A stretch of DNA of 64,000 bases from contig CAZINZ010000003.1 in NCBI GenBank assembly GCA_964540715.1, forward strand, positions 6,751-70,750. The letters run 5' to 3'. Source of the DNA: an uncultured Syntrophaceae bacterium. GTDB taxonomy: Bacteria > Desulfobacterota > Syntrophia > Syntrophales > UBA2210. Shown here piece by piece: positions 1,554 through 34,343 of this stretch. Position numbers and translations under genes: made by a program. Below the pieces are notes generated by a model. It ran no database searches. It was given only the letters and a program-made list of their open reading frames with translations, and was not told the DNA's origin. Position 1 is the stretch's first letter. Every line of letters begins with the position of its first letter.

Positions 1554-3776
1554 TTAACTCCCTAATATTCCCATGATAGAGCCGATTTGAAAAACAAGCG
1601 TAGCCAATACAAGGGCCAGGACAGTATTGAACGCCATTGAGAAAAGCCCCCATTTCCATGAACCGGATTCTCTTACGATCATAACCACGGTAATAAAACA
1701 GGGCGCGTAGAATATAGTAAAGATGATCAGACTCAACGCGACCAGGGGACTCCATCCCGGCGTTTTGGCTAAAGTTTCAGAAAGAGATCCAGTCTCCTCC
1801 GGATCAACCTCACCGAGGGAATATGCGGTACCTAGGGCCGAAACGACCACTTCCTTGGCTGCAAAACCACCAACGAGGGCAATATTGGTACGCCAGTCAA
1901 AACCTGCCCATTTCGATACACCCTCCAGCGCGAGCCCCATCCGGCCGGCCACGGAATTTCTTAAACCCTCCTCCGCTTCTTTTCTATCTATAACAATTAG
2001 CTGATTCTGCAGATCTTCAACTTTCTTAGATAGTTTTGTGCTCTCGCCGATTGTCACCAAATTCTGGATAACTGTTGCTTCTGCTGACATCTTTACAGTC
2101 TCACGCATATTCTCAAATTCCTGAACCCGGGAGTCCGGTAGACCGGGAAAGGTCATCATGGCCCACAGGATAATTGAAATTCCCAAAATAACCGTTCCCG
2201 CTTTCTTGATATACTGCCACGTTCTTTCCCATGTGTGTATAGCCAATCCTTTAAAAGTAGGAAGACGGTACGGAGGAAGTTCCATGACAAAGGGAGTGGA
2301 TTCGCCTTTAATAATTGTCACCCTCAAAAATTTTGCAACAAGCAGGGCACCAGCCCACGAAACAAGTGTGATCATAAGCATTATAGTTGCTTCATTATTG
2401 GCGAAGAACGCCGCCACTAAGAGAGCAAAAACCGGTAATTTTGCCCCGCAACTCATAAAGGGAACGGTAAGCAGTGTTGCCAGTCGCTCTTTGGGTGATT
2501 TGAGGGTCCGAGTTGCCATAACGCCGGGCACAGCACAACCCCCGGCAATACCGCCTGACACTATATATGCCATGACGGAACTGCCGTGGAGCCCGAAGAT
2601 CCGAAATACCCTGTCCAGCATGAATGCAACCCTTGCCAGATACCCGGAATCTTCCAGCAGGGCAATTCCGAAAAACATGAACATGATCAACGGTACAAAA
2701 CCGAGAACACCCCCGACACCATCAATAACACCAGACACAACGAGGGATTTCAGAAGACCGTCAGGCAGGTGTGTAGAGGCCGCATCTCCAAGCCATCCGA
2801 AAAAACTCTCGAACCAACCCACGGGAATCTCACTGTAGGTAAACGTAAAATGATAAAGGGCCATTAATGATGCTATCATAATAATAGGACCAAGAAACCG
2901 GTTGGTTACAACCTTATCTATCTTATCAGACGTATAAAGTCTGTTTTGATCATACTTCTGTTGAAGAACCCCCTGTTTTATAATGGAATTGATGTAGCCG
3001 TAGCGTTGATCGGCAATCATGGCTTCAGGATAGATATTCAGAGTCCTCTGTAGATGTAGCGACACCTTCTCCACTATTTTTTCAAGCCTTGCAGAGACAG
3101 AGGGATTACTTTTTTCCCCCTTTGACAAAATCTGTTTGTCATTTTCAAGATATTTCAAGGCAGTCCAGCGGGCATGGTATGCATCGGTTAAAAAATCACT
3201 GGCCTTGATCGCCTTTTCCATCTCAAGGATTGCTTCGTCCAGGTCATTCCCGTAGGATATTGTAAGCGGGCCCTTCTTTTTCCGTTCCTGAGCCATCTTT
3301 GTGGCTGCGTTTATAAGTTCTTTCTTTCCCTTGCCGGTCCTGGCAATTGTGGGAATAACGGGGTTTCCAAGCAGCGTGGAGAGTTTTTCTGCATTAATTT
3401 CTATTCCCCGGCTTTTGGCCACATCCATCATATTAAGAGCGATACATACTGGAACGCCCATTTCGAGAAACTGAATTGCCAGGTAAAGATTTCGTTCCAG
3501 GTTGGACGCATCAACTATATCAATAACAACATCCGGGTTTTCATTGACCAGAAAGTCTCTGGCAACCGCTTCCTCCTCGGAATACGCTGTGAGAGAATAA
3601 GTTCCGGGAAGGTCCACGATATGTATCTTATCTTCATTATGGATATAAGTGCCCTCTTTCTTTTCCACAGTAACTCCCGGATAGTTACCTACATGCTGGC
3701 GGGCGCCTGTAAGCTCATTAAAGAGAGTCGTTTTACCGGAGTTAGGATTTCCTGCTAAAGCTATTTTTGCCTCCAT
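1554..3776 (-). CDS. feoB: Ferrous iron transporter FeoB
   Basis: 740 aa. The N-terminal G-domain has GNPNSGKTTLFN and DLPGTYS motifs, followed by a multi-pass membrane domain. A FeoA ORF sits immediately upstream. Confidence 0.97.
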   Translation of the reverse strand: MEAKIALAGNPNSGKTTLFNELTGARQHVGNYPGVTVEKKEGTYIHNEDKIHIVDLPGTYSLTAYSEEEAVARDFLVNENPDVVIDIVDASNLERNLYLAIQFLEMGVPVCIALNMMDVAKSRGIEINAEKLSTLLGNPVIPTIARTGKGKKELINAATKMAQERKKKGPLTISYGNDLDEAILEMEKAIKASDFLTDAYHARWTALKYLENDKQILSKGEKSNPSVSARLEKIVEKVSLHLQRTLNIYPEAMIADQRYGYINSIIKQGVLQQKYDQNRLYTSDKIDKVVTNRFLGPIIMIASLMALYHFTFTYSEIPVGWFESFFGWLGDAASTHLPDGLLKSLVVSGVIDGVGGVLGFVPLIMFMFFGIALLEDSGYLARVAFMLDRVFRIFGLHGSSVMAYIVSGGIAGGCAVPGVMATRTLKSPKERLATLLTVPFMSCGAKLPVFALLVAAFFANNEATIMLMITLVSWAGALLVAKFLRVTIIKGESTPFVMELPPYRLPTFKGLAIHTWERTWQYIKKAGTVILGISIILWAMMTFPGLPDSRVQEFENMRETVKMSAEATVIQNLVTIGESTKLSKKVEDLQNQLIVIDRKEAEEGLRNSVAGRMGLALEGVSKWAGFDWRTNIALVGGFAAKEVVVSALGTAYSLGEVDPEETGSLSETLAKTPGWSPLVALSLIIFTIFYAPCFITVVMIVRESGSWKWGLFSMAFNTVLALVLATLVFQIGSIMGILGS

Positions 3777-3778
3777 TT

Positions 3779-4012
3779 TTATCCTACCTCCACTTCTACA
3801 TGGTCTGCTTCATTGTTACGAAGGGTCAGGGTGAATCCCATGACTCTAATGGCCACCGGGTCATAGAGAGGTGCCCGGCCCTGGATCTTAACGGTTGCCC
3901 CCGGGACAAGTCCCATATCACGGATACGCCTGCCAAGCTCACCGCCAACCTTTATGGCGGATATGACTCCTGATTGATTGTCCTTCATTTCTCGCATCAT
4001 TATCTTTTCCAC
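3779..4012 (-). CDS. feoA: FeoA family protein
   Basis: 77 aa with the FeoA/SH3-like pattern GGELGRRIRDMGLVPGATVKI. Its stop lies 2 nt before the feoB start. Confidence 0.85.
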   Translation of the reverse strand: MEKIMMREMKDNQSGVISAIKVGGELGRRIRDMGLVPGATVKIQGRAPLYDPVAIRVMGFTLTLRNNEADHVEVEVG

Positions 4013-4089
4013 ATTACAATCCTCCTTAGTTTTTGTTGATTACCCAGGAAGCGGGAATCACATTGCCGGTATTAGATGGACCGTATGTT

Positions 4090-4105
4090 ATTAGTGCTCT
4101 CTAAC
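4090..4105. promoter_or_regulatory. Candidate metalloregulator operator ATTAGTGCTCTCTAAC (TTAG-N6-CTAA)
   Basis: One of three near-identical inverted-repeat boxes. This one lies about 80 nt upstream of the feoA (3779-4012) start. Confidence 0.4.
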
Positions 4106-4201
4106 ATATTGGCCAAAAAAAATTACCTCACCTTAATTTTTCGCATAAGCATATCATAGTCCCATAACAACCTCTCTTCCGACACATTTTCTGTAATAGA
4201 T

Positions 4202-4444
4202 CTATTTTCCATTTTCCGAGACCATAATTTTTTGAGCCATTCCTGTCCCTATGGCCAAGCGACAATTCCCGGCAGTAGCAATAAAGGGTCCCGGTGAGCC
4301 TCGCCTGATAACCTCGATTTCCGAACCGGGAACCAGTCCCATGCTTGCCAGGTGTGCATACATTCCCCGGCCACCGGCAAGAGACACAATCCGTACCTTT
4401 TTACCGACCGGAACAGTGGTTAAAGGCGTCACATGCATTTTCAT
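4202..4444 (-). CDS. feoA: FeoA family protein (second copy)
   Basis: 80 aa with the FeoA-type sequence VGKKVRIVSLAGGRGMYAHLASMGLVPGSEIEVIRRG. Confidence 0.85.
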   Translation of the reverse strand: MKMHVTPLTTVPVGKKVRIVSLAGGRGMYAHLASMGLVPGSEIEVIRRGSPGPFIATAGNCRLAIGTGMAQKIMVSENGK

Positions 4445-4500
4445 ATTTCAATCCTCACGAGGCCCATATCTCAAGCCGAATATTAGAAAATTAATATATT

Positions 4501-4516
4501 ATTAGATATTTCTAAC
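4501..4516. promoter_or_regulatory. Candidate metalloregulator operator ATTAGATATTTCTAAC
   Basis: Same TTAG-N6-CTAA architecture. It lies about 57 nt upstream of the second feoA start, between the dtxR-family stop and feoA. Confidence 0.4.
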
Positions 4517-4533
4517 TTATTGTCGAAAAAAAA

Positions 4534-5061
4534 CTAGCCCATTTCGTCTTCGAATTTCTTGATCTCTGAATTATATCGACCGGCAAAACCCTTCATCTTT
4601 TTCAGGCATTCGGCATCATCACGCCCACGTCGGATATAATTGTCAAAGTGCAGCAACCAGTCAGCGCCACCCCTGGGACAGGTCTTAACAAATTCCATAA
4701 ACTTAATAAACCTGTCCAGGGTGACAGGACTGACAACATGTTCCATCTTACAGGCATCTTCTTCTGCCGTTATTGCATCCACATTCAATATACCTGTCAG
4801 AAAATCACGAAAAATAACGTGTCGACGGTAAACATCTTTTGCAATACGCTTACCCTCCTTTGTCAATTCCACGTACTCATACTTTTCATGATTGATCAAA
4901 CCACGCTCCACAAGATTATTCAACATGCTGGTAACTGTTGGCAGTTTTACTTTCATTTTCTGGGCTATATCCTTAACCCGGACAAATTTTTTATTCTTCT
5001 CCAAGTTAAGAATAGTCTCCAGATAATCTTCCATTGTAGAGCTTAATGCTTTCGCACCCAT
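4534..5061 (-). CDS. DtxR/MntR/IdeR-family metal-dependent transcriptional repressor
   Basis: 175 aa. It has an N-terminal wHTH (MEDYLETILNLEK..VRVKDIAQKMKVKLPTVTSMLNNLVERGLI) and a DtxR-type dimerisation/metal helix (DVYRRHVIFRDFL). Confidence 0.9.
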   Translation of the reverse strand: MGAKALSSTMEDYLETILNLEKNKKFVRVKDIAQKMKVKLPTVTSMLNNLVERGLINHEKYEYVELTKEGKRIAKDVYRRHVIFRDFLTGILNVDAITAEEDACKMEHVVSPVTLDRFIKFMEFVKTCPRGGADWLLHFDNYIRRGRDDAECLKKMKGFAGRYNSEIKKFEDEMG

Positions 5062-5094
5062 AATCTCACGCCTAACCGGAAACCCCGGAATAAA

Positions 5095-5110
5095 ATTAGA
5101 TACACCTAAC
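5095..5110. promoter_or_regulatory. Candidate metalloregulator operator ATTAGATACACCTAAC
   Basis: Third TTAG-N6-CTAA box, 35-50 nt upstream of the repressor gene start. This position suggests autoregulation. Confidence 0.4.
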
Positions 5111-5407
5111 TTGATTCTAGTAAGCTAATTGCAGTACCATGTCAAGCTTTTTTTGATATTATACCGGGAAAATGTTATTAGTGAACTGCCCAGAAGGTGA
5201 AGCCAAGATTATACAATACAGTATTATGCACTTGCAAAACCATATTTTGCAGTTTTTCGAAGCTTATAGGGCAGAATGTTCTCATATTGGGAACGGGACT
5301 TGTATTTTTGCTTATTTAACTGAATGTAGGTATCTTAGGGACATTCACGAGGTGATCATTACCATTCAAAGTCTTGAATACTATCTGTAAAATCAGACCA
5401 AACACTT

Positions 5408-5627
5408 CAGGAAGTTACGAATATCACGTCACCCGGGAAAAATCACGATCAATAATCTGCACATTTCAACCTGTTATCATTGATCTGGCAAGATCACCCA
5501 ACCTCTCGGCTTGTATTTGAAGTGAAGGATTGTGGTTCATGAAAATATGACATGAGCCGGACATTGTCTCCACCTACAGCTGTTCATTGGTGGTGATTTC
5601 TCAAAATTGAGGATTACGGATTGAAAG
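5408..5627 (+). repeat. Intergenic element copy A (~220 nt; conserved core 5513-5565 with hairpin 5534-5558)
   Basis: Aligns almost without gaps to 6529-6745 and 7916-8134. Core sequence: gtatttgaa-N12-GGTTCATGaaaatatgaCATGAGCCggacattg. Confidence 0.85.
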
Positions 5628-5745
5628 AGAGTAACGCCGGCTTCACCCGTTCATCGGGTGAAAGGCGTGGTTGGGACATTTGGCTAACAGGGAATAGGCG
5701 TCAACTGTGTAGGCCTGACACCCATGCTTTTAAAAGTAATCCTTG

Positions 5746-6327
5746 TCAAACACCGGCGCCACCACCGGAAAGTCTGTCCTCCGCCTCCTGGAGCGATCCA
5801 TAACCGGCACCAATGACCGTAGCGAGTAGCACCTTTTCAGCGAGGTTTTCCTTTCGCTCAAGAAACTGTATTTGGTTTTGGTAGTACAGGACCAGCGTGT
5901 TGTCCGAGTAGGTCTCCAGCTCACCGCGCAGGTAGGTTTTCATCGAAGTGCCCCTTGGCCCATCCTCATCAATGGGGCGCCCCCGGCTGCGCAGATTGGG
6001 ATATTTTACTGCCAGCTCTTTGGTCCATGCGATTTCGATTTCTACGATCTGGTCAATCAGCGGATTTTCACTGAGTGGTGAAATACTGTTCTCCATGCGG
6101 GCATATTTCAGGGTCAACAGGTTTAGTCCCTTGGCATCGGCCCTGATGAGGTCATCCCGATAGCTTTCAAGGGCAGCTTCGGACCAAACTGAAAACGAGA
6201 CCCCTCTGTAGAATCGGAAAGCCCCCGGGTTCTCCTGGCAGGATGCCGGTTCCCGGGCGGGGACATTGAGAAACATATCGAGTTCCCGGTCGATGATTTC
6301 TTGGATAAGTTCCTGTTTTTTCCCCAT
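5746..6327 (-). CDS. Hypothetical protein, probably DUF4125 family
   Basis: 193-aa ORF with no overlap. The pattern ...FLNV..R..CQ....F...R...F..WS...L.SY..DL..A...G.NL...KYARM matches my recollection of DUF4125. The family call is tentative. Confidence 0.6.
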   Translation of the reverse strand: MGKKQELIQEIIDRELDMFLNVPAREPASCQENPGAFRFYRGVSFSVWSEAALESYRDDLIRADAKGLNLLTLKYARMENSISPLSENPLIDQIVEIEIAWTKELAVKYPNLRSRGRPIDEDGPRGTSMKTYLRGELETYSDNTLVLYYQNQIQFLERKENLAEKVLLATVIGAGYGSLQEAEDRLSGGGAGV

Positions 6328-6528
6328 TGCAGCCTCTTTTACATGTTTATCCGGCCCAAACGTCGTACCCGCGGACTTCGGGGTCCCGGATGCGGCCCTG
6401 GACCATCGGGCCGTGGTCAGGTAAAAAATCCCTCTCGCCCCTTCCCGCCCTCGTCTCCCTTGTCCACCGTGACGTTCATGTCGAAAAGAAGTTATGCATA
6501 TTTACTAAAATACGGCAACCATTAAGTA

Positions 6529-6745
6529 CAGGAAGCATCTGGATTTCATAGGAACTGAAAATAAGCTGTCCCGCTTTTGCGTGTTTCGACCCGTATTCAA
6601 TAAGCTAATCAGGAAATTCGATCTGGAGCTTTGTATTTGAACTGAGTGAGTGTGGTTCATGAAAATATGCCATGAACCGGGCATTGTATCCACCTACTAA
6701 CAAATGATTTGATCAAAGGAAATATTGAGGATTACCATTTGAAAG
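6529..6745 (+). repeat. Intergenic element copy B (hairpin 6654-6678)
   Basis: Same architecture as copies A and C. The hairpin here is a perfect GGTTCATG/CATGAACC. Confidence 0.85.
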
Positions 6746-6785
6746 TTGAAAAACTTTGAACAGGTACTGCGACAGTATCGAATCT

Positions 6786-7757
6786 TCAGGCCTTGTTGTA
6801 GATCTGATATCGATCCCGCCCCGCTTCCTTGGCTTGATACATGGCTATATCGGCATTTTTCAGGAGGATTCCTTCATCTGTTCCATCATCGGGATAAACT
6901 GCAATGCCGATACTTGTCGTCACAACGAGCTGATGGGTATCAATGAGGAAGGGTTTCCGAAAACCGTCAACAATCTTCTGCGCAATATTGATCGCATCTT
7001 CTACTGTCTTCAGCTCAGGAAGGATCAGCGCAAACTCGTCGCCACCTATGCGCGCAACGGTATCACCCTTCCTCAGCGCTGCGGTGAGCCGCTTTGCCGT
7101 TGCCTTGAGAAGAAGATCCCCCGCAGCATGCCCCATGGTGTCATTCACGTCTTTAAAATTGTCGAGGTCGAGCATCGCGATTCCCACCTCTTTTTTATTC
7201 CTCTGGGCATGGGCTAAGGTAATACTTAAGCGATCGGAAAAGAGCTTCCGATTGGGAAGACCCGTCAGGGAATCATGATAGGCCATCTGCCGGATCTGTT
7301 CCTCCGCCTGCTTTTGCTCGGTGATGTCCGAAATCAAGTTCCATGTCGCCGGCTGCCCCTCCCAGTCGATCAAGACGGAATTGATTTCAGCCCAGCGGGT
7401 CTGACCGTTCTTGTGCAGCAACCTGTAGGCATGCCGGGAGGAAGTCGTATTTCCATGAATTTTATCCAAATATCTCTTTATTACTTGTTCCCGGTCATCC
7501 GGATGAATGATTTCAAAAATGGGGATCGTCTGAAATTCCTGCCACGAATAGCCAAAGGTCTCCTCCGCCTTTTTATTGACGTATTTAATCATTCCGTCTT
7601 GCAGCACCAGAATAGATTCGCTGGCGTTTTCCACAAGAATACGGTATCTATGTTCGCTTTCCCGCAAGTCCTCTTCCGCTTTTTTGCCTTTAATTGATTC
7701 TTTTTCGATTACTCTGATTCTTTGTTCCAGGTCTTCGTAGGTTGGTTTTCTAGTCAC
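6786..7757 (-). CDS. PAS-domain diguanylate cyclase (GGDEF) with RxxD I-site
   Basis: 323 aa. An N-terminal coiled coil and PAS fold are followed by a GGDEF domain (SLTGLPNR..., RKGDTVARIGGDEFALIL). Confidence 0.92.
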   Translation of the reverse strand: MTRKPTYEDLEQRIRVIEKESIKGKKAEEDLRESEHRYRILVENASESILVLQDGMIKYVNKKAEETFGYSWQEFQTIPIFEIIHPDDREQVIKRYLDKIHGNTTSSRHAYRLLHKNGQTRWAEINSVLIDWEGQPATWNLISDITEQKQAEEQIRQMAYHDSLTGLPNRKLFSDRLSITLAHAQRNKKEVGIAMLDLDNFKDVNDTMGHAAGDLLLKATAKRLTAALRKGDTVARIGGDEFALILPELKTVEDAINIAQKIVDGFRKPFLIDTHQLVVTTSIGIAVYPDDGTDEGILLKNADIAMYQAKEAGRDRYQIYNKA

Positions 7758-7915
7758 AGGTAGGTGGTCCTCCGGTTGCTCAAAAAGCAGGCTTCAAGTA
7801 ACCTGGTTTCTCTAAATTTGCAGGTTGCTGTCTGGTTTCCCACAGGTGCAACAATATTTTAACCGTTACCATTTGTAATGTAGCATAAAACGACAAAATA
7901 GAAAAACAACTCTTT

Positions 7916-8134
7916 CAGGAAGAAGACATTAGCCTGGATGATCGGGAAATAAGCTGTCAGATAGTAGCATGTTTCATCCCGCATTCAATGATATGACCCT
8001 ATCAGCCACAGTGAAGGCTCGTATTTGAACTGAATGAGTGCGGTTCATGAAAATATGACATGAGCCGGACATTGACACCACTTACAAGTCCTCAGAAACG
8101 TTTCAGCAGAAGATCAATTATTACCGCTCAAAAG
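7916..8134 (+). repeat. Intergenic element copy C (hairpin 8042-8066)
   Basis: Same architecture. By eye the core matches copy A at about 50 of 54 positions. Confidence 0.85.
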
Positions 8135-8424
8135 TCTCACTGTAATATTTCTTGACATATAACTGTTCCAGTCAAGACCCAAAATAAATTATCATAAATG
8201 CGAGGGGCAGGCATAATTATTGTGATACATGTTCCTCGTACCCCCCCCCTTTTTTTCTGTTCCTGATATGGGGATTTCCATTTTCTAACAATACACCTCA
8301 CTCATCATGAAAATTAATAGCGGCCTGACTTTGTCTTATGAAGCTTGGATTTTTAACTGAAATTGGGTTAATCTTATAAAATATAGATTTCAACCCATAT
8401 CTTCACATAAAAGGAGGTAAAGAC

Positions 8425-9342
8425 ATGAGTACAAAAGAGAAGGACGTTATGGTGCCAATGGATGTCCGGGCAGATGCGCAAAAAGATTATATTGAAAATT
8501 ATTTGACCATAACCCGTGAAAGTGGGCGATTAATGCTTTTTGCGGGTGACCAGAAAGTAGAGCACCTCAACCATGATTTTGCCGGCGAGGGTATTCATCC
8601 GGATGACAATGACCCTGAACATCTGTTCAAGATTGCCTACCGGGCGAATATAGGAGTTTTTGCTACGCAGCTTGGTCTTGTTGCCAGATATGGAATGGAC
8701 TATCCTGATATTCCGTATCTAATAAAATTGAACTCAAAAACTAATCTTGTAAAAACATCTCAATCTGATCCCTTCAACAATCAGTGGATCGATATCGAAC
8801 AGGTAGTAGATTTTCGAAAGAACAGCGGCCTTAACATACCGGGAGTCGGCTACACCATCTATCTTGGAAGTGAATATGAGGCTGATATGCTGCGTCAGGC
8901 GGCGCAGATCGTTTACAATGCTCACTGCTATGGGTTGATAACGGTTCTGTGGATTTATCCCCGGGGCAAGGCTGTGACAGATGAAAAAGACCCCCACCTG
9001 ATTGCCGGCGCTACTGGTGTTGCCGCATGTATGGGCAGTGATTTTGTTAAGGTAAACTATCCTGAAAAGCAGGGATATGAATCAAAAGAAATTTTTAAGG
9101 AGGCTGTCCTCGCTGCAGGCCGCACAATGGTCGTATGCGCAGGCGGTTCAAGTGTAGATGTGAAACCATTCCTGCAGCGGCTTCATGATCAGATATTTGT
9201 CAGCGGCGCTTCAGGAAATGCTACAGGCAGAAATATTCACCAGAAATCCCTGGAAGAAGCAGTGAAGATGTGTAATGCTGTTTATGCTATCACGGTGGAT
9301 GCCAAAGGAGTGGAGGAGGCTTTAAAAATCTATCAATCCTGA
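8425..9342 (+). CDS. Class I (DhnA/archaeal-type) fructose-bisphosphate aldolase family protein
   Basis: 305 aa with DeoC/LacD-DhnA-like sequence and a Schiff-base lysine context (GSDFVKVNYP). A strong RBS (aaaggaggtaaaga) precedes the ATG. Confidence 0.8.
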   Translation: MSTKEKDVMVPMDVRADAQKDYIENYLTITRESGRLMLFAGDQKVEHLNHDFAGEGIHPDDNDPEHLFKIAYRANIGVFATQLGLVARYGMDYPDIPYLIKLNSKTNLVKTSQSDPFNNQWIDIEQVVDFRKNSGLNIPGVGYTIYLGSEYEADMLRQAAQIVYNAHCYGLITVLWIYPRGKAVTDEKDPHLIAGATGVAACMGSDFVKVNYPEKQGYESKEIFKEAVLAAGRTMVVCAGGSSVDVKPFLQRLHDQIFVSGASGNATGRNIHQKSLEEAVKMCNAVYAITVDAKGVEEALKIYQS

Positions 9343-9360
9343 TAAGCAGGACTTGGGCAT

Positions 9361-10116
9361 ATGCAAAAATTAGTTCTACTGCGGCACGGGCAGAGTGTCT
9401 GGAACCTGGAAAACAAGTTTACCGGATGGACGGATGTGGACCTGTCCGATCAAGGTATAGCCGAAGCTCACAATGCCGGGAGGCTCCTGAGAGATGGAGG
9501 CTTTCGGTTTGATGAGGCATTCACGTCCGTTCTGAAACGCGCAATCAGGACCTTGTGGATAGTTATGGATGAGATGGATCTCATGTGGATTCCCGTGTAT
9601 AGATCCTGGCGGCTTAATGAAAGGCATTATGGAGTGTTGCAAGGTTTGGACAAACAAGCTACCGTTGAAAAGTATGGGCAACAACAGGTTCAGATATGGC
9701 GGCGCAGTTATGAAATCCGGCCTCCGGCCATGAATAAAACAGACAAGCGAAATCCAACCCTTGACCCGAGCTACGCTAATTTGAAAAACAAGGAATTACC
9801 TGTTACCGAGTCCCTGAAAGATACGCTCGATCGTGTTTTGCCATACTGGCATGAGACAATTGAGCCAGTCTTGAAAACAGGGAAGCAAGTTCTTGTGGCA
9901 GCACATGGGAATAGTCTGCGGGCCATTGTAAAATATCTTGATAACATGTCCGATGACGAAATTCCGGATGTCAATATCCCCACTGGGTTTCCTTTGGTCT
10001 ATGAGTTGGACGAGGGCCTGAATGCGATCAGGCATTATTATCTGGGTGATAGGGAAGAAATCAGGAAAGCCAGGGAGGTAGTTGCCAGGCAAATTTCCGT
10101 AAAAGAGAAACAATAA
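9361..10116 (+). CDS. gpmA: 2,3-bisphosphoglycerate-dependent phosphoglycerate mutase
   Basis: 251 aa with the canonical N-terminus [26 protein letters not shown] and the later HGNSLRA motif. Confidence 0.95.
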
Positions 10117-34266: not shown

Positions 34267-34343
34267 GGGCGATTAGCTCAGCAGGATAGAGCACTGGCCT
34301 CCGAAGCCAAAGGTCGTGGGTTCGAATCCCACATCGCCCCCCA
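34267..34343 (+). tRNA. tRNA-Arg (anticodon CCG), CCA encoded
   Basis: Manual cloverleaf: acceptor GGGCGAT/ATCGCCC, D-stem GCTC/GAGC, anticodon loop CTCCGAA, T-arm GTGGG-TTCGAAT-CCCAC. Confidence 0.9.

Follow-up and report, generated by a model that had tools for sequence, protein, structure and literature searches.

We analysed a 64,000-nt stretch of DNA from an uncultured Syntrophaceae bacterium (the window; GCA_964540715.1, contig CAZINZ010000003.1, positions 6,751-70,750, forward strand), in which three copies of an intergenic element of about 220 nt lie inside 3 kb and none in the rest of the stretch. The left part of the window carries, on the minus strand, feoB (1554-3776), feoA and the gene of a DtxR-family repressor (4534-5061). 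The elements are direct repeats, all on the plus strand, at 5408-5627 (copy A), 6529-6745 (copy B) and 7916-8134 (copy C). A DUF4125 gene (5746-6327, minus strand) is the sole gene between copies A and B, and a PAS-GGDEF diguanylate cyclase gene (6786-7757, minus strand), whose 3' end copy B abuts, is the sole gene between copies B and C. The end of copy C lies 290 nt upstream of a plus-strand gene for a DeoC-family aldolase (8425-9342), which is followed by a gpmA-like gene. The three co-oriented paralogs and their gene arrangement had been described in the original prediction, which was made from the letters of the window and took the elements for a candidate structured RNA or regulatory module; the repeat search, the alignment and the exact-core count given below bear that description out. 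The three elements are members of a lineage-specific, co-oriented, mosaic family of intergenic DNA repeats in an uncultured Syntrophaceae-like population, and they may act as recombination joints between small gene cassettes.

The repeat search identifies an ungapped block of 120 nt (5459-5578, 6579-6698 and 7967-8086) with pairwise identities of 71-77%, and a MAFFT alignment of the three copies requires only a few single-base gaps, with indels of 1-2 nt. Windowed identity among the copies is 80-100% in the core and 30-65% in the arms, whose lengths match across copies despite an identity of 43-60%, in agreement with the contrast between conserved core and diverged but length-matched arms that had been noted before. 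The near-invariant core extends over 5511-5578 in copy A (TTGTATTTGAA...CCACCTAC), 6631-6698 in copy B and 8019-8086 in copy C (all plus strand). The window contains its 25-nt sequence GGTTCATGAAAATATGNCATGARCC at exactly three positions (5534, 6654 and 8042); 100 shuffles give an expectation of zero. These positions hold an imperfect palindrome, GGTTCATG-N9-CATGAGCC (5534-5558, 6654-6678 and 8042-8066), which can also be written GGTTCATGA-AAATATG-ACATGAGCC and then has a 9-7-9 geometry. Such a geometry is typical of the core site of a tyrosine recombinase. The heptamer GTATTTG lies at the left edge of the core on the plus strand (5513-5519, 6633-6639 and 8021-8027). A secondary palindrome, to which no strand is assigned, is located in the left arm (TGATC-N6-GATCA at 5481-5496 in copy A, TGATA-N6-TATCA at 7989-8004 in copy C) and is present in 14 of 23 copies.

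Each window copy starts with CAGGAAG and ends with the motif GATTAC(C/G)....(G/A)AAAG. These ends, as originally proposed, are real, but conservation extends past both of them: it continues to 8157 in copy C, where a 23-nt stub (TCTCACTGTAATATTTCTTGACA, 8135-8157) of a downstream leader unit follows that copies A and B lack, and it runs for about 60-100 nt upstream of CAGGAAG in family members. The claim that the end motif recurs upstream holds for copy A (CATTACCATTCAAAGTC, 5357-5373, plus strand, within the conserved upstream region of the family); the GATTAC-like echo upstream of copy C is present but weaker.

The exact core pattern was searched in species-representative genomes, metagenome contigs and viral contigs. 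It is present in one species-representative genome (a metagenome-assembled genome of an uncultured Syntrophaceae, at a contig end) and in 25 metagenome contigs; it occurs in no viral contig, and a phage origin was rejected on this ground. A profile search of the core-bearing loci (here and below, L numbers designate related loci) collected about 37 full and 10 partial copies, comprising at least 28 distinct sequences, so that the search for further copies suggested in the original prediction proved productive. We found nothing relevant in the literature that describes an equivalent of this repeat family. Contigs often contain two or three copies, and all 21 adjacent pairs are co-oriented, at distances of 1.1-7.5 kb. 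The copies are usually separated by one or a few unrelated accessory or defence genes, with single genes in the window, L002, L003 and L020. Genes between or after elements include N6_Mtase (four times), AbiEii, GmrSD_N and AAA_5 (twice each), Type ISP, an HD phosphohydrolase, an SMC-like ATPase and others, and restriction-modification, Abi, GmrSD and McrB-like families feature prominently in a set of 94 non-redundant proteins from the neighbourhood.

Elements are found in every gene-orientation context, including between convergent genes, and both elements and flanking genes are gained or lost at these positions among strain variants and relatives. The locus of the window was found again in at least 24 contigs, which come from different assemblies. 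The block that contains the DUF4125 gene (5406-6438) is 96.6% identical in three contigs with differing flanks, and the strain variant L030 lacks copy A and everything beyond copy A. Orthologous aldolase loci (88-93% protein identity) are devoid of the element; in both L032 and L033 an unrelated gene is followed directly by the sequence homologous to the window, which does not start until 8181 (82.9% over 211 nt). A role as conserved regulator of the aldolase-gpmA pair was rejected because the element is missing from orthologous loci with 90-93% protein identity. Transposase genes of the insertion sequence (IS) family IS110 (DEDD_Tnp_IS110 and Transposase_20) are located near elements in L016 (about 225 nt downstream) and at L037:552-1583. 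IS110 elements often target repeated sequences, and they may use this repeat family as a target too. The IS110 transposase after the copy in L016 had also raised a role similar to that of a bridge RNA, which we rejected since only one or two of the approximately 37 copies are so placed.

The region upstream of CAGGAAG is of two or three conserved sequence types in family members, each of which carries the motif CTGATTAC(C)AAAAG, an echo of the right-end GATTACC....GAAAG. In about half of the copies conservation also continues downstream into a leader unit, which ends exactly at a U-run (L002:158-317, L008:5872-6039 and about 15 other loci). The leader is composed, in this order, of TCTCAC.GTAATA..CTTGACAAG..ATCATAATGGAGTTAGT, a semi-conserved segment of about 60 nt, GGGGGGATT-ATG-GTC-TGA, a hairpin of 12-16 bp and the U-run. 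The two-codon mini-open reading frame ATG-GTC-TGA has a Shine-Dalgarno-like GGGGGG ahead of it and ends 13 nt before the stem; its second codon is replaced by the synonymous GTT in one copy and by GAC in another. A consensus scan calls the hairpin a terminator, and because the hairpin has several G.U pairs it is a terminator on the plus strand only. The leader further contains an invariant -35-like CTTGACA, 17 nt downstream of which stands a poor hexamer (TA.TG.), and because of this hexamer no canonical sigma-70 promoter was called at CTTGACA; a promoter there is putative.

In 17 of about 20 leaders the element stands immediately upstream at a fixed distance, while L019 and L014 have a leader without element. 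A plus-strand gene follows 30-250 nt after the leader unit, and in about two-thirds of the loci the leader reads into this downstream gene. The genes after complete modules are mutually unrelated; they encode an SMC-like ATPase, a strictosidine-synthase-like protein, an epimerase, a PNPOx-like protein, an HD phosphohydrolase, GmrSD_N and a BamE-repeat lipoprotein, and several of them have no Pfam match. No alternative antiterminator fold of the leader is supported, and the leader has no Rfam match. The leader unit is a candidate for a ribosome-dependent attenuator or a small RNA.

The family is a mosaic. The core of about 66 nt hardly varies: 23 of 27 copies fall into a single cluster. The left-arm blocks L1 and L2 fall into 14 and 12 types that reassort (19 L1|L2 combinations, where 14 is the minimum). 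Most right arms and upstream regions are specific to their locus. The blocks are separated by short conserved islands, namely CAGGAAG, TTTC at the boundary of L1 and L2, GTATTTG and GATTAC..GAAAG. As an initial all-pairs breakpoint scan mostly recovered the edges of the core, a cluster-based analysis of element halves was used instead, which groups 28 distinct elements into 19 left-half and 24 right-half types. The right half linked to DUF4125, which is the right half of copy A and is tied to the DUF4125 gene in every context seen, is joined to five left halves; going leftward, the first difference among them comes at -1 to -5. There are also four left halves that occur with two to five right halves each, and here the first right difference is mostly at +1 to +3. 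The exchange point is bracketed to about 10 nt that hold GTATTTG, at the left edge of the core, and for the DUF4125-linked right half no crossover was seen in the next 50 identical nt. A shared stretch of about 10 nt is too short for assembly chimeras or RecA-type recombination to be likely, and we regard chimeras as an improbable source of the key junctions, the window locus being also present in the 24 or more contigs mentioned above.

Further junctions lie close to the same point: at least six partial copies end within a base or two of ...TTGTATTTG(AA). The comparison of copy A with its orthologous copy in L017 shows a divergence of 1.4% in the core, 2.0% in the right arm and 2.1% in the DUF4125 gene, and of 12% in the left arm, where the differences are clustered in patches that match other paralogs and thus indicate gene conversion. 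A shortened left half, with the upstream hairpin region (GGGTCAAGTCTACGATTGACCC) joined directly to L2, occurs at L021:1839-1967, L021:3150-3206 and L023:6368-6421 (oriented coordinates); it implies an internal deletion of about 150 nt between GCCAAT and CGTATTCA.

At the GTATTTG point, the loci L013 and L023 continue from two different left arms into one and the same foreign sequence, and about 80 nt further on lies a tyrosine recombinase gene. The foreign sequence is part of a mobile unit of 2,118 bp with CTATACGTAACA terminal inverted repeats (L037:4770-6887; also in L038-L044, L023 and L013), which in its full context (L037-L044) is located inside an element and has GTATTTG as a direct repeat on both sides. 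In silico removal of the unit together with one 7-mer restores a complete element (profile 1-163, E=3e-32), and the unit is inserted at the same 7-mer in four different elements. It carries the genes of two tandem Xer-like tyrosine recombinases of 374 and 268 aa, which are 31% identical to each other and both have RHR-Y motifs. Both proteins remain under every NCBIfam cutoff, with XerC, XerD and XerA as nearest models; the integron-integrase model TIGR02249 scores them at 85 and 93 bits against a cutoff of 265, and NF011946 at 57-59 against 435. The 268-aa recombinase is a member of a very abundant family, of which 7,674 proteins were counted at E<=1e-20, most of them from short contigs.

We put the probability at roughly one half that the elements act at the DNA level as recombination joints between cassettes of one or a few genes in accessory and defence regions. 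An element is an assembly of interchangeable blocks (L1, L2, the near-invariant core and the right arm) parted by the conserved islands, and according to this model GTATTTG would be the site-specific crossover or target sequence at which left and right halves of different elements are swapped. The recombinases might exchange the halves directly, or units integrated in two elements might recombine and then be excised; both routes would place the junction at the 7-mer. The recombinase pair would be the catalyst of such element-by-element exchange, and the invariant core would be a protein-binding platform. A modular protein-binding region had been among the alternatives of the original prediction and is the one closest to the evidence. 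Exchange at GTATTTG combined with gene conversion between blocks would shuffle genes between elements, and the plus-strand leader of complete members, as putative promoter and attenuator, would read into the downstream cassette gene and probably give it conditional expression. A more specific version of the model can be advanced only tentatively, namely that of a hitherto undescribed, non-integron cassette system of Syntrophales with co-oriented joints of about 220-500 nt, a 7-bp GTATTTG crossover, a self-mobile Xer-like pair and cassette-borne conditional leaders made of promoter, mini-open reading frame and terminator, which would shuffle defence and accessory genes and would have evolved independently of integrons.

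Several observations weigh against recombination joints. The 64-kb window contains no tyrosine recombinase, IS110 transposase or unit end, and any activity at its three copies is therefore extrapolated from relatives. By eye, the sequences beside the 7-mer in the elements are unlike the terminal repeats of the unit. Reassortment is also seen at other block boundaries, for example at the TTTC island that parts L1 from L2; ordinary gene conversion may hence account for part of the mosaic, and the 7-mer could be nothing more than the limit of the homologous stretch. No intact cassette was found in two arrays with both ends at 7-mers, and neither DUF4125 nor PAS-GGDEF is typical mobile cargo. The model also leaves the invariant palindrome and the fixed arm lengths unaccounted for, and nearly all loci are from metagenome assemblies.

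Among the other explanations, the one to which the original prediction had given most room, a family of plus-strand structured or small RNAs with a conserved scaffold and variable targeting segments, is not supported by the tests and appears very unlikely. At the gathering score the sole Rfam match in the window is a tRNA gene (34267-34340, 68.4 bits); the region 5200-8450 gives two chance matches of 16-17 bits at E<=10, and 12 related loci including their leaders give none. The original prediction had recognised the element as neither riboswitch, IS end, group II intron domain nor attC site, and rightly so: it represents a real, previously unrecognised, modular non-coding family. Folding of 12 representative copies reveals no extra stability over dinucleotide shuffles on either strand (z -1.8 to +1.7), and in RNAalifold of 23 distinct copies only the core hairpin survives (-4.5 kcal/mol). 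Six of its nine pairs never vary, two vary on one side and three copies break one pair; the compensatory changes that further copies were expected to reveal if it were an RNA hairpin amount to zero in the 23 copies (covariation score 0.068, shuffled mean 0.088). The original prediction had named this outcome as one that would refute it, although the invariance of the pairs leaves the covariation test with little power. The sole compensatory change seen is in the secondary palindrome of the left arm, in copy C, and may be counted in favour of an RNA. So may the hairpin pair that is U-G in copies A and C and U-A in copy B (U-G in most of the family, U-A in five), a difference that an RNA pair tolerates on the plus strand only; the difference itself was correctly observed, but an imperfect DNA palindrome is compatible with it too. 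Complete copies, moreover, adjoin a plus-strand unit with a real terminator, and a long transcript over both is possible. The 220-nt element itself, however, is not bounded by any conserved promoter or terminator that we could find. Its variable arm segments find complementarity of at most 9-12 nt in the window, which was the target searched, and shuffles reach a mean of 10-11 and a maximum of 17; the idea that they are targeting or guide segments was rejected accordingly. Nor do the segments have an identical partner in the window beyond chance. They fall into a small number of discrete types, and these are reassorted between copies, a pattern not expected of guide sequences. That the elements control the two genes they flank as antisense regulators is likewise unlikely, given members in every gene-orientation context and their absence from the orthologous loci of relatives. 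Small open reading frames on the minus strand (35, 62 and 35 aa) overlap each window copy and share a similar N-terminus, but were judged spurious: the substitutions lack a 3-nt periodicity, and what is conserved is the nucleotide sequence.

At the DNA level, the elements could also be passive dispersed repeats of the repetitive extragenic palindromic (REP), bacterial interspersed mosaic element (BIME) or Neisseria intergenic mosaic element (NIME) type, selfish or neutral, kept similar by concerted evolution and a mere multi-copy target of the recombinase unit and perhaps of IS110, without a part of their own in gene movement. There are well-known cases of mobile elements directed at repeated extragenic sequences, such as IS1397 in BIMEs and Nf prophages in the dRS3 repeats of Neisseria, and the IS110 transposases near elements in L016 and L037 and the absence from orthologous loci of relatives fit this picture. 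Reassortment at several block boundaries is what gene conversion between paralogs predicts, and the core could persist as the sole stretch similar enough for conversion. Yet the co-orientation of 21 of 21 pairs is unusual for repeats of the REP type or for miniature inverted-repeat transposable elements (MITEs) and is expected of directional recombination sites. The copies form arrays that punctuate single genes and are not scattered, the exchange of halves is confined to about 10 nt and not spread over the 66-nt identical core, and arms at 43-60% identity keep fixed lengths. We regard passive repeats as clearly less likely than joints, but as a viable reading. Somewhat less probable still is an upstream regulatory region, in which the palindromes would be operator or activator sites of a transcription factor that controls the CTTGACA box and the leader and unites many accessory genes in one regulon, with copies A and B as relics or decoys. 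The fixed position of the element directly upstream of 17 of about 20 leaders agrees with this, as do the invariant CTTGACA with its poor TA.TG. hexamer, a combination found in activator-dependent promoters, the conserved arm lengths, which fit helical phasing, and the leaders that read into a downstream gene at about two-thirds of the loci. About 12 copies with an intact core, however, are located between convergent genes or beside 3' ends, with nothing to regulate; leaders lack the element in L019 and L014, no promoter was formally called at CTTGACA, and the 7-mer junctions, truncations, co-orientation and unit insertions are left unaccounted for. Although a DtxR-family gene is adjacent in the window, the palindrome is by eye unlike a DtxR or Fur box, and no connection with iron is seen at the other loci. 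Comparison with the consensus by eye also led us to reject a sigma-54 promoter together with the DtxR and Fur boxes, the iron-gene context being specific to the window.

The organisation of the elements resembles that of integrons, NIMEs and pdif modules, although the element belongs to none of these. As in integrons, co-oriented repeated sites part mostly single, unrelated accessory or defence genes, arrays vary between strains, the two sides of hybrid sites travel with different neighbours, and a simple recombinase of the Xer-related tyrosine family is associated. In contrast to attC, an imperfect hairpin of 57-141 nt with R''/L''/L'/R' boxes, the element has about 220 nt (up to about 500 with upstream region and leader) and no fold of the single-stranded DNA type. 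Features of attC are absent: there is no inverted repeat of >=20 nt in 4000-10000, only a stem of 8-9 bp, and RYYYAAC...GTTRRRY boxes are missing by eye. Instead of an enzyme beside an attI platform, there is a tandem pair of recombinases (374 and 268 aa) on a 2.1-kb unit of its own with terminal inverted repeats; a promoter-like leader comes with many of the cassettes, and cargo genes can face either way. An IntI-type integrase was excluded, as the window contains no tyrosine recombinase and the associated pair scores far below the integron-integrase cutoffs. An attC site or a MITE was rejected in the absence of a long inverted repeat, of terminal inverted repeats and of a target duplication of the element itself; the CAGGAAG and ..GAAAG ends are not inverted repeats, and the element boundaries vary with context and continue into the conserved upstream region and leader.

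In the NIMEs of Neisseria, RS blocks are parted by dRS3 repeats, dRS3 is the integration target of a recombinase-borne mobile element, and the NIMEs have been credited with promoting recombination and variation in adjacent genes. The likeness to our family, an intergenic mosaic of variable blocks and short conserved spacers one of which is the integration target of a mobile element, is one of organisation and not of homology. Whereas NIMEs repeat one 20-bp sequence, the islands here differ from one another; the family has a 66-nt invariant core and strict co-orientation, the inserting unit encodes tyrosine recombinases and not a Piv/IS110-type enzyme, and the lineage is unrelated. REP sequences and BIMEs are short (20-40 nt) imperfect palindromes of high copy number and mixed orientation that are associated with RAYT transposases. 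With these and with BOX, ERIC and Correia repeats the family has in common that it is multi-copy, non-coding, intergenic and partly modular, and that such repeats can carry promoters or terminators and break assemblies; the element differs in being far longer than a REP, in having no terminal inverted repeats or target duplications of its own and in forming co-oriented arrays instead of being scattered. No RAYT-like family is among the matches listed for the 94 neighbouring proteins (the 25 most frequent families).

The pdif modules of Acinetobacter plasmids are bounded by 28-bp XerC-6-XerD sites in alternating orientation, on which the host XerCD acts (PMC6449649, PMC7399989, PMC13141974). 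Here too, accessory-gene modules are bounded by sites of Xer-type recombinases and are shuffled between replicons or arrays, but the sites of the present family are long, co-oriented and chromosomal, with a candidate 7-mer crossover and element-borne recombinases. By eye, and with no profile search run, the surroundings of the 7-mer bear no resemblance to dif. The 2,118-bp unit of the related loci can be compared with recombinase-in-trio (RIT) elements and Tn554-type tandems, compact elements with several tyrosine recombinases (PMC3414803, PMC8138268), with which it shares adjacent simple tyrosine recombinases, short terminal inverted repeats and site-specific insertion. It differs from them in having two genes instead of three and 2.1 kb instead of the approximately 3.5 kb of RITs, in lacking a large partner of the Tn554 TnpB type, and in that its target is a multi-copy intergenic repeat.

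Other sequences of the locus deserve mention. A second short repeat, CTGTGTAGGCCTGACACCCATGC, is located just 3' of the DUF4125 gene (5705-5727); in L030 it occurs three times, once inverted, within L030:10598-11400, bracketing the DNA that replaces copy A and dtxR-feoAB. Between copy A and the DUF4125 stop codon lies a strong hairpin, TTCACCCG-TTCA-TCGGGTGAA (5642-5662), and the strain-level breakpoint of L030 is situated immediately beyond it. The 5' region of the aldolase gene contains a homopolymeric C9-T7 tract (8241-8258) after a CGAGG...CCTCG stem, and the orthologous region of L032 has C8 followed by TTC; the tract could be terminator-like or slippage-prone.

If the elements are joints, a lineage of uncultured anaerobes would assemble and exchange single accessory and defence genes in an integron-like organisation that relies on other sites and on a self-mobile recombinase pair. 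This would widen the range of known routes to flexible bacterial gene arrays, make a new site and a new recombinase pair available for study, and account for the poor assembly of these genomes at the positions of the elements. The leader, in which a two-codon open reading frame stands just before the terminator, is a separate and compact candidate for a device that puts horizontally acquired genes under ribosome-dependent control. Should the elements prove to be passive repeats, annotation would still gain usefully from a mosaic repeat family and a small tyrosine-recombinase element directed at it, both of them new.

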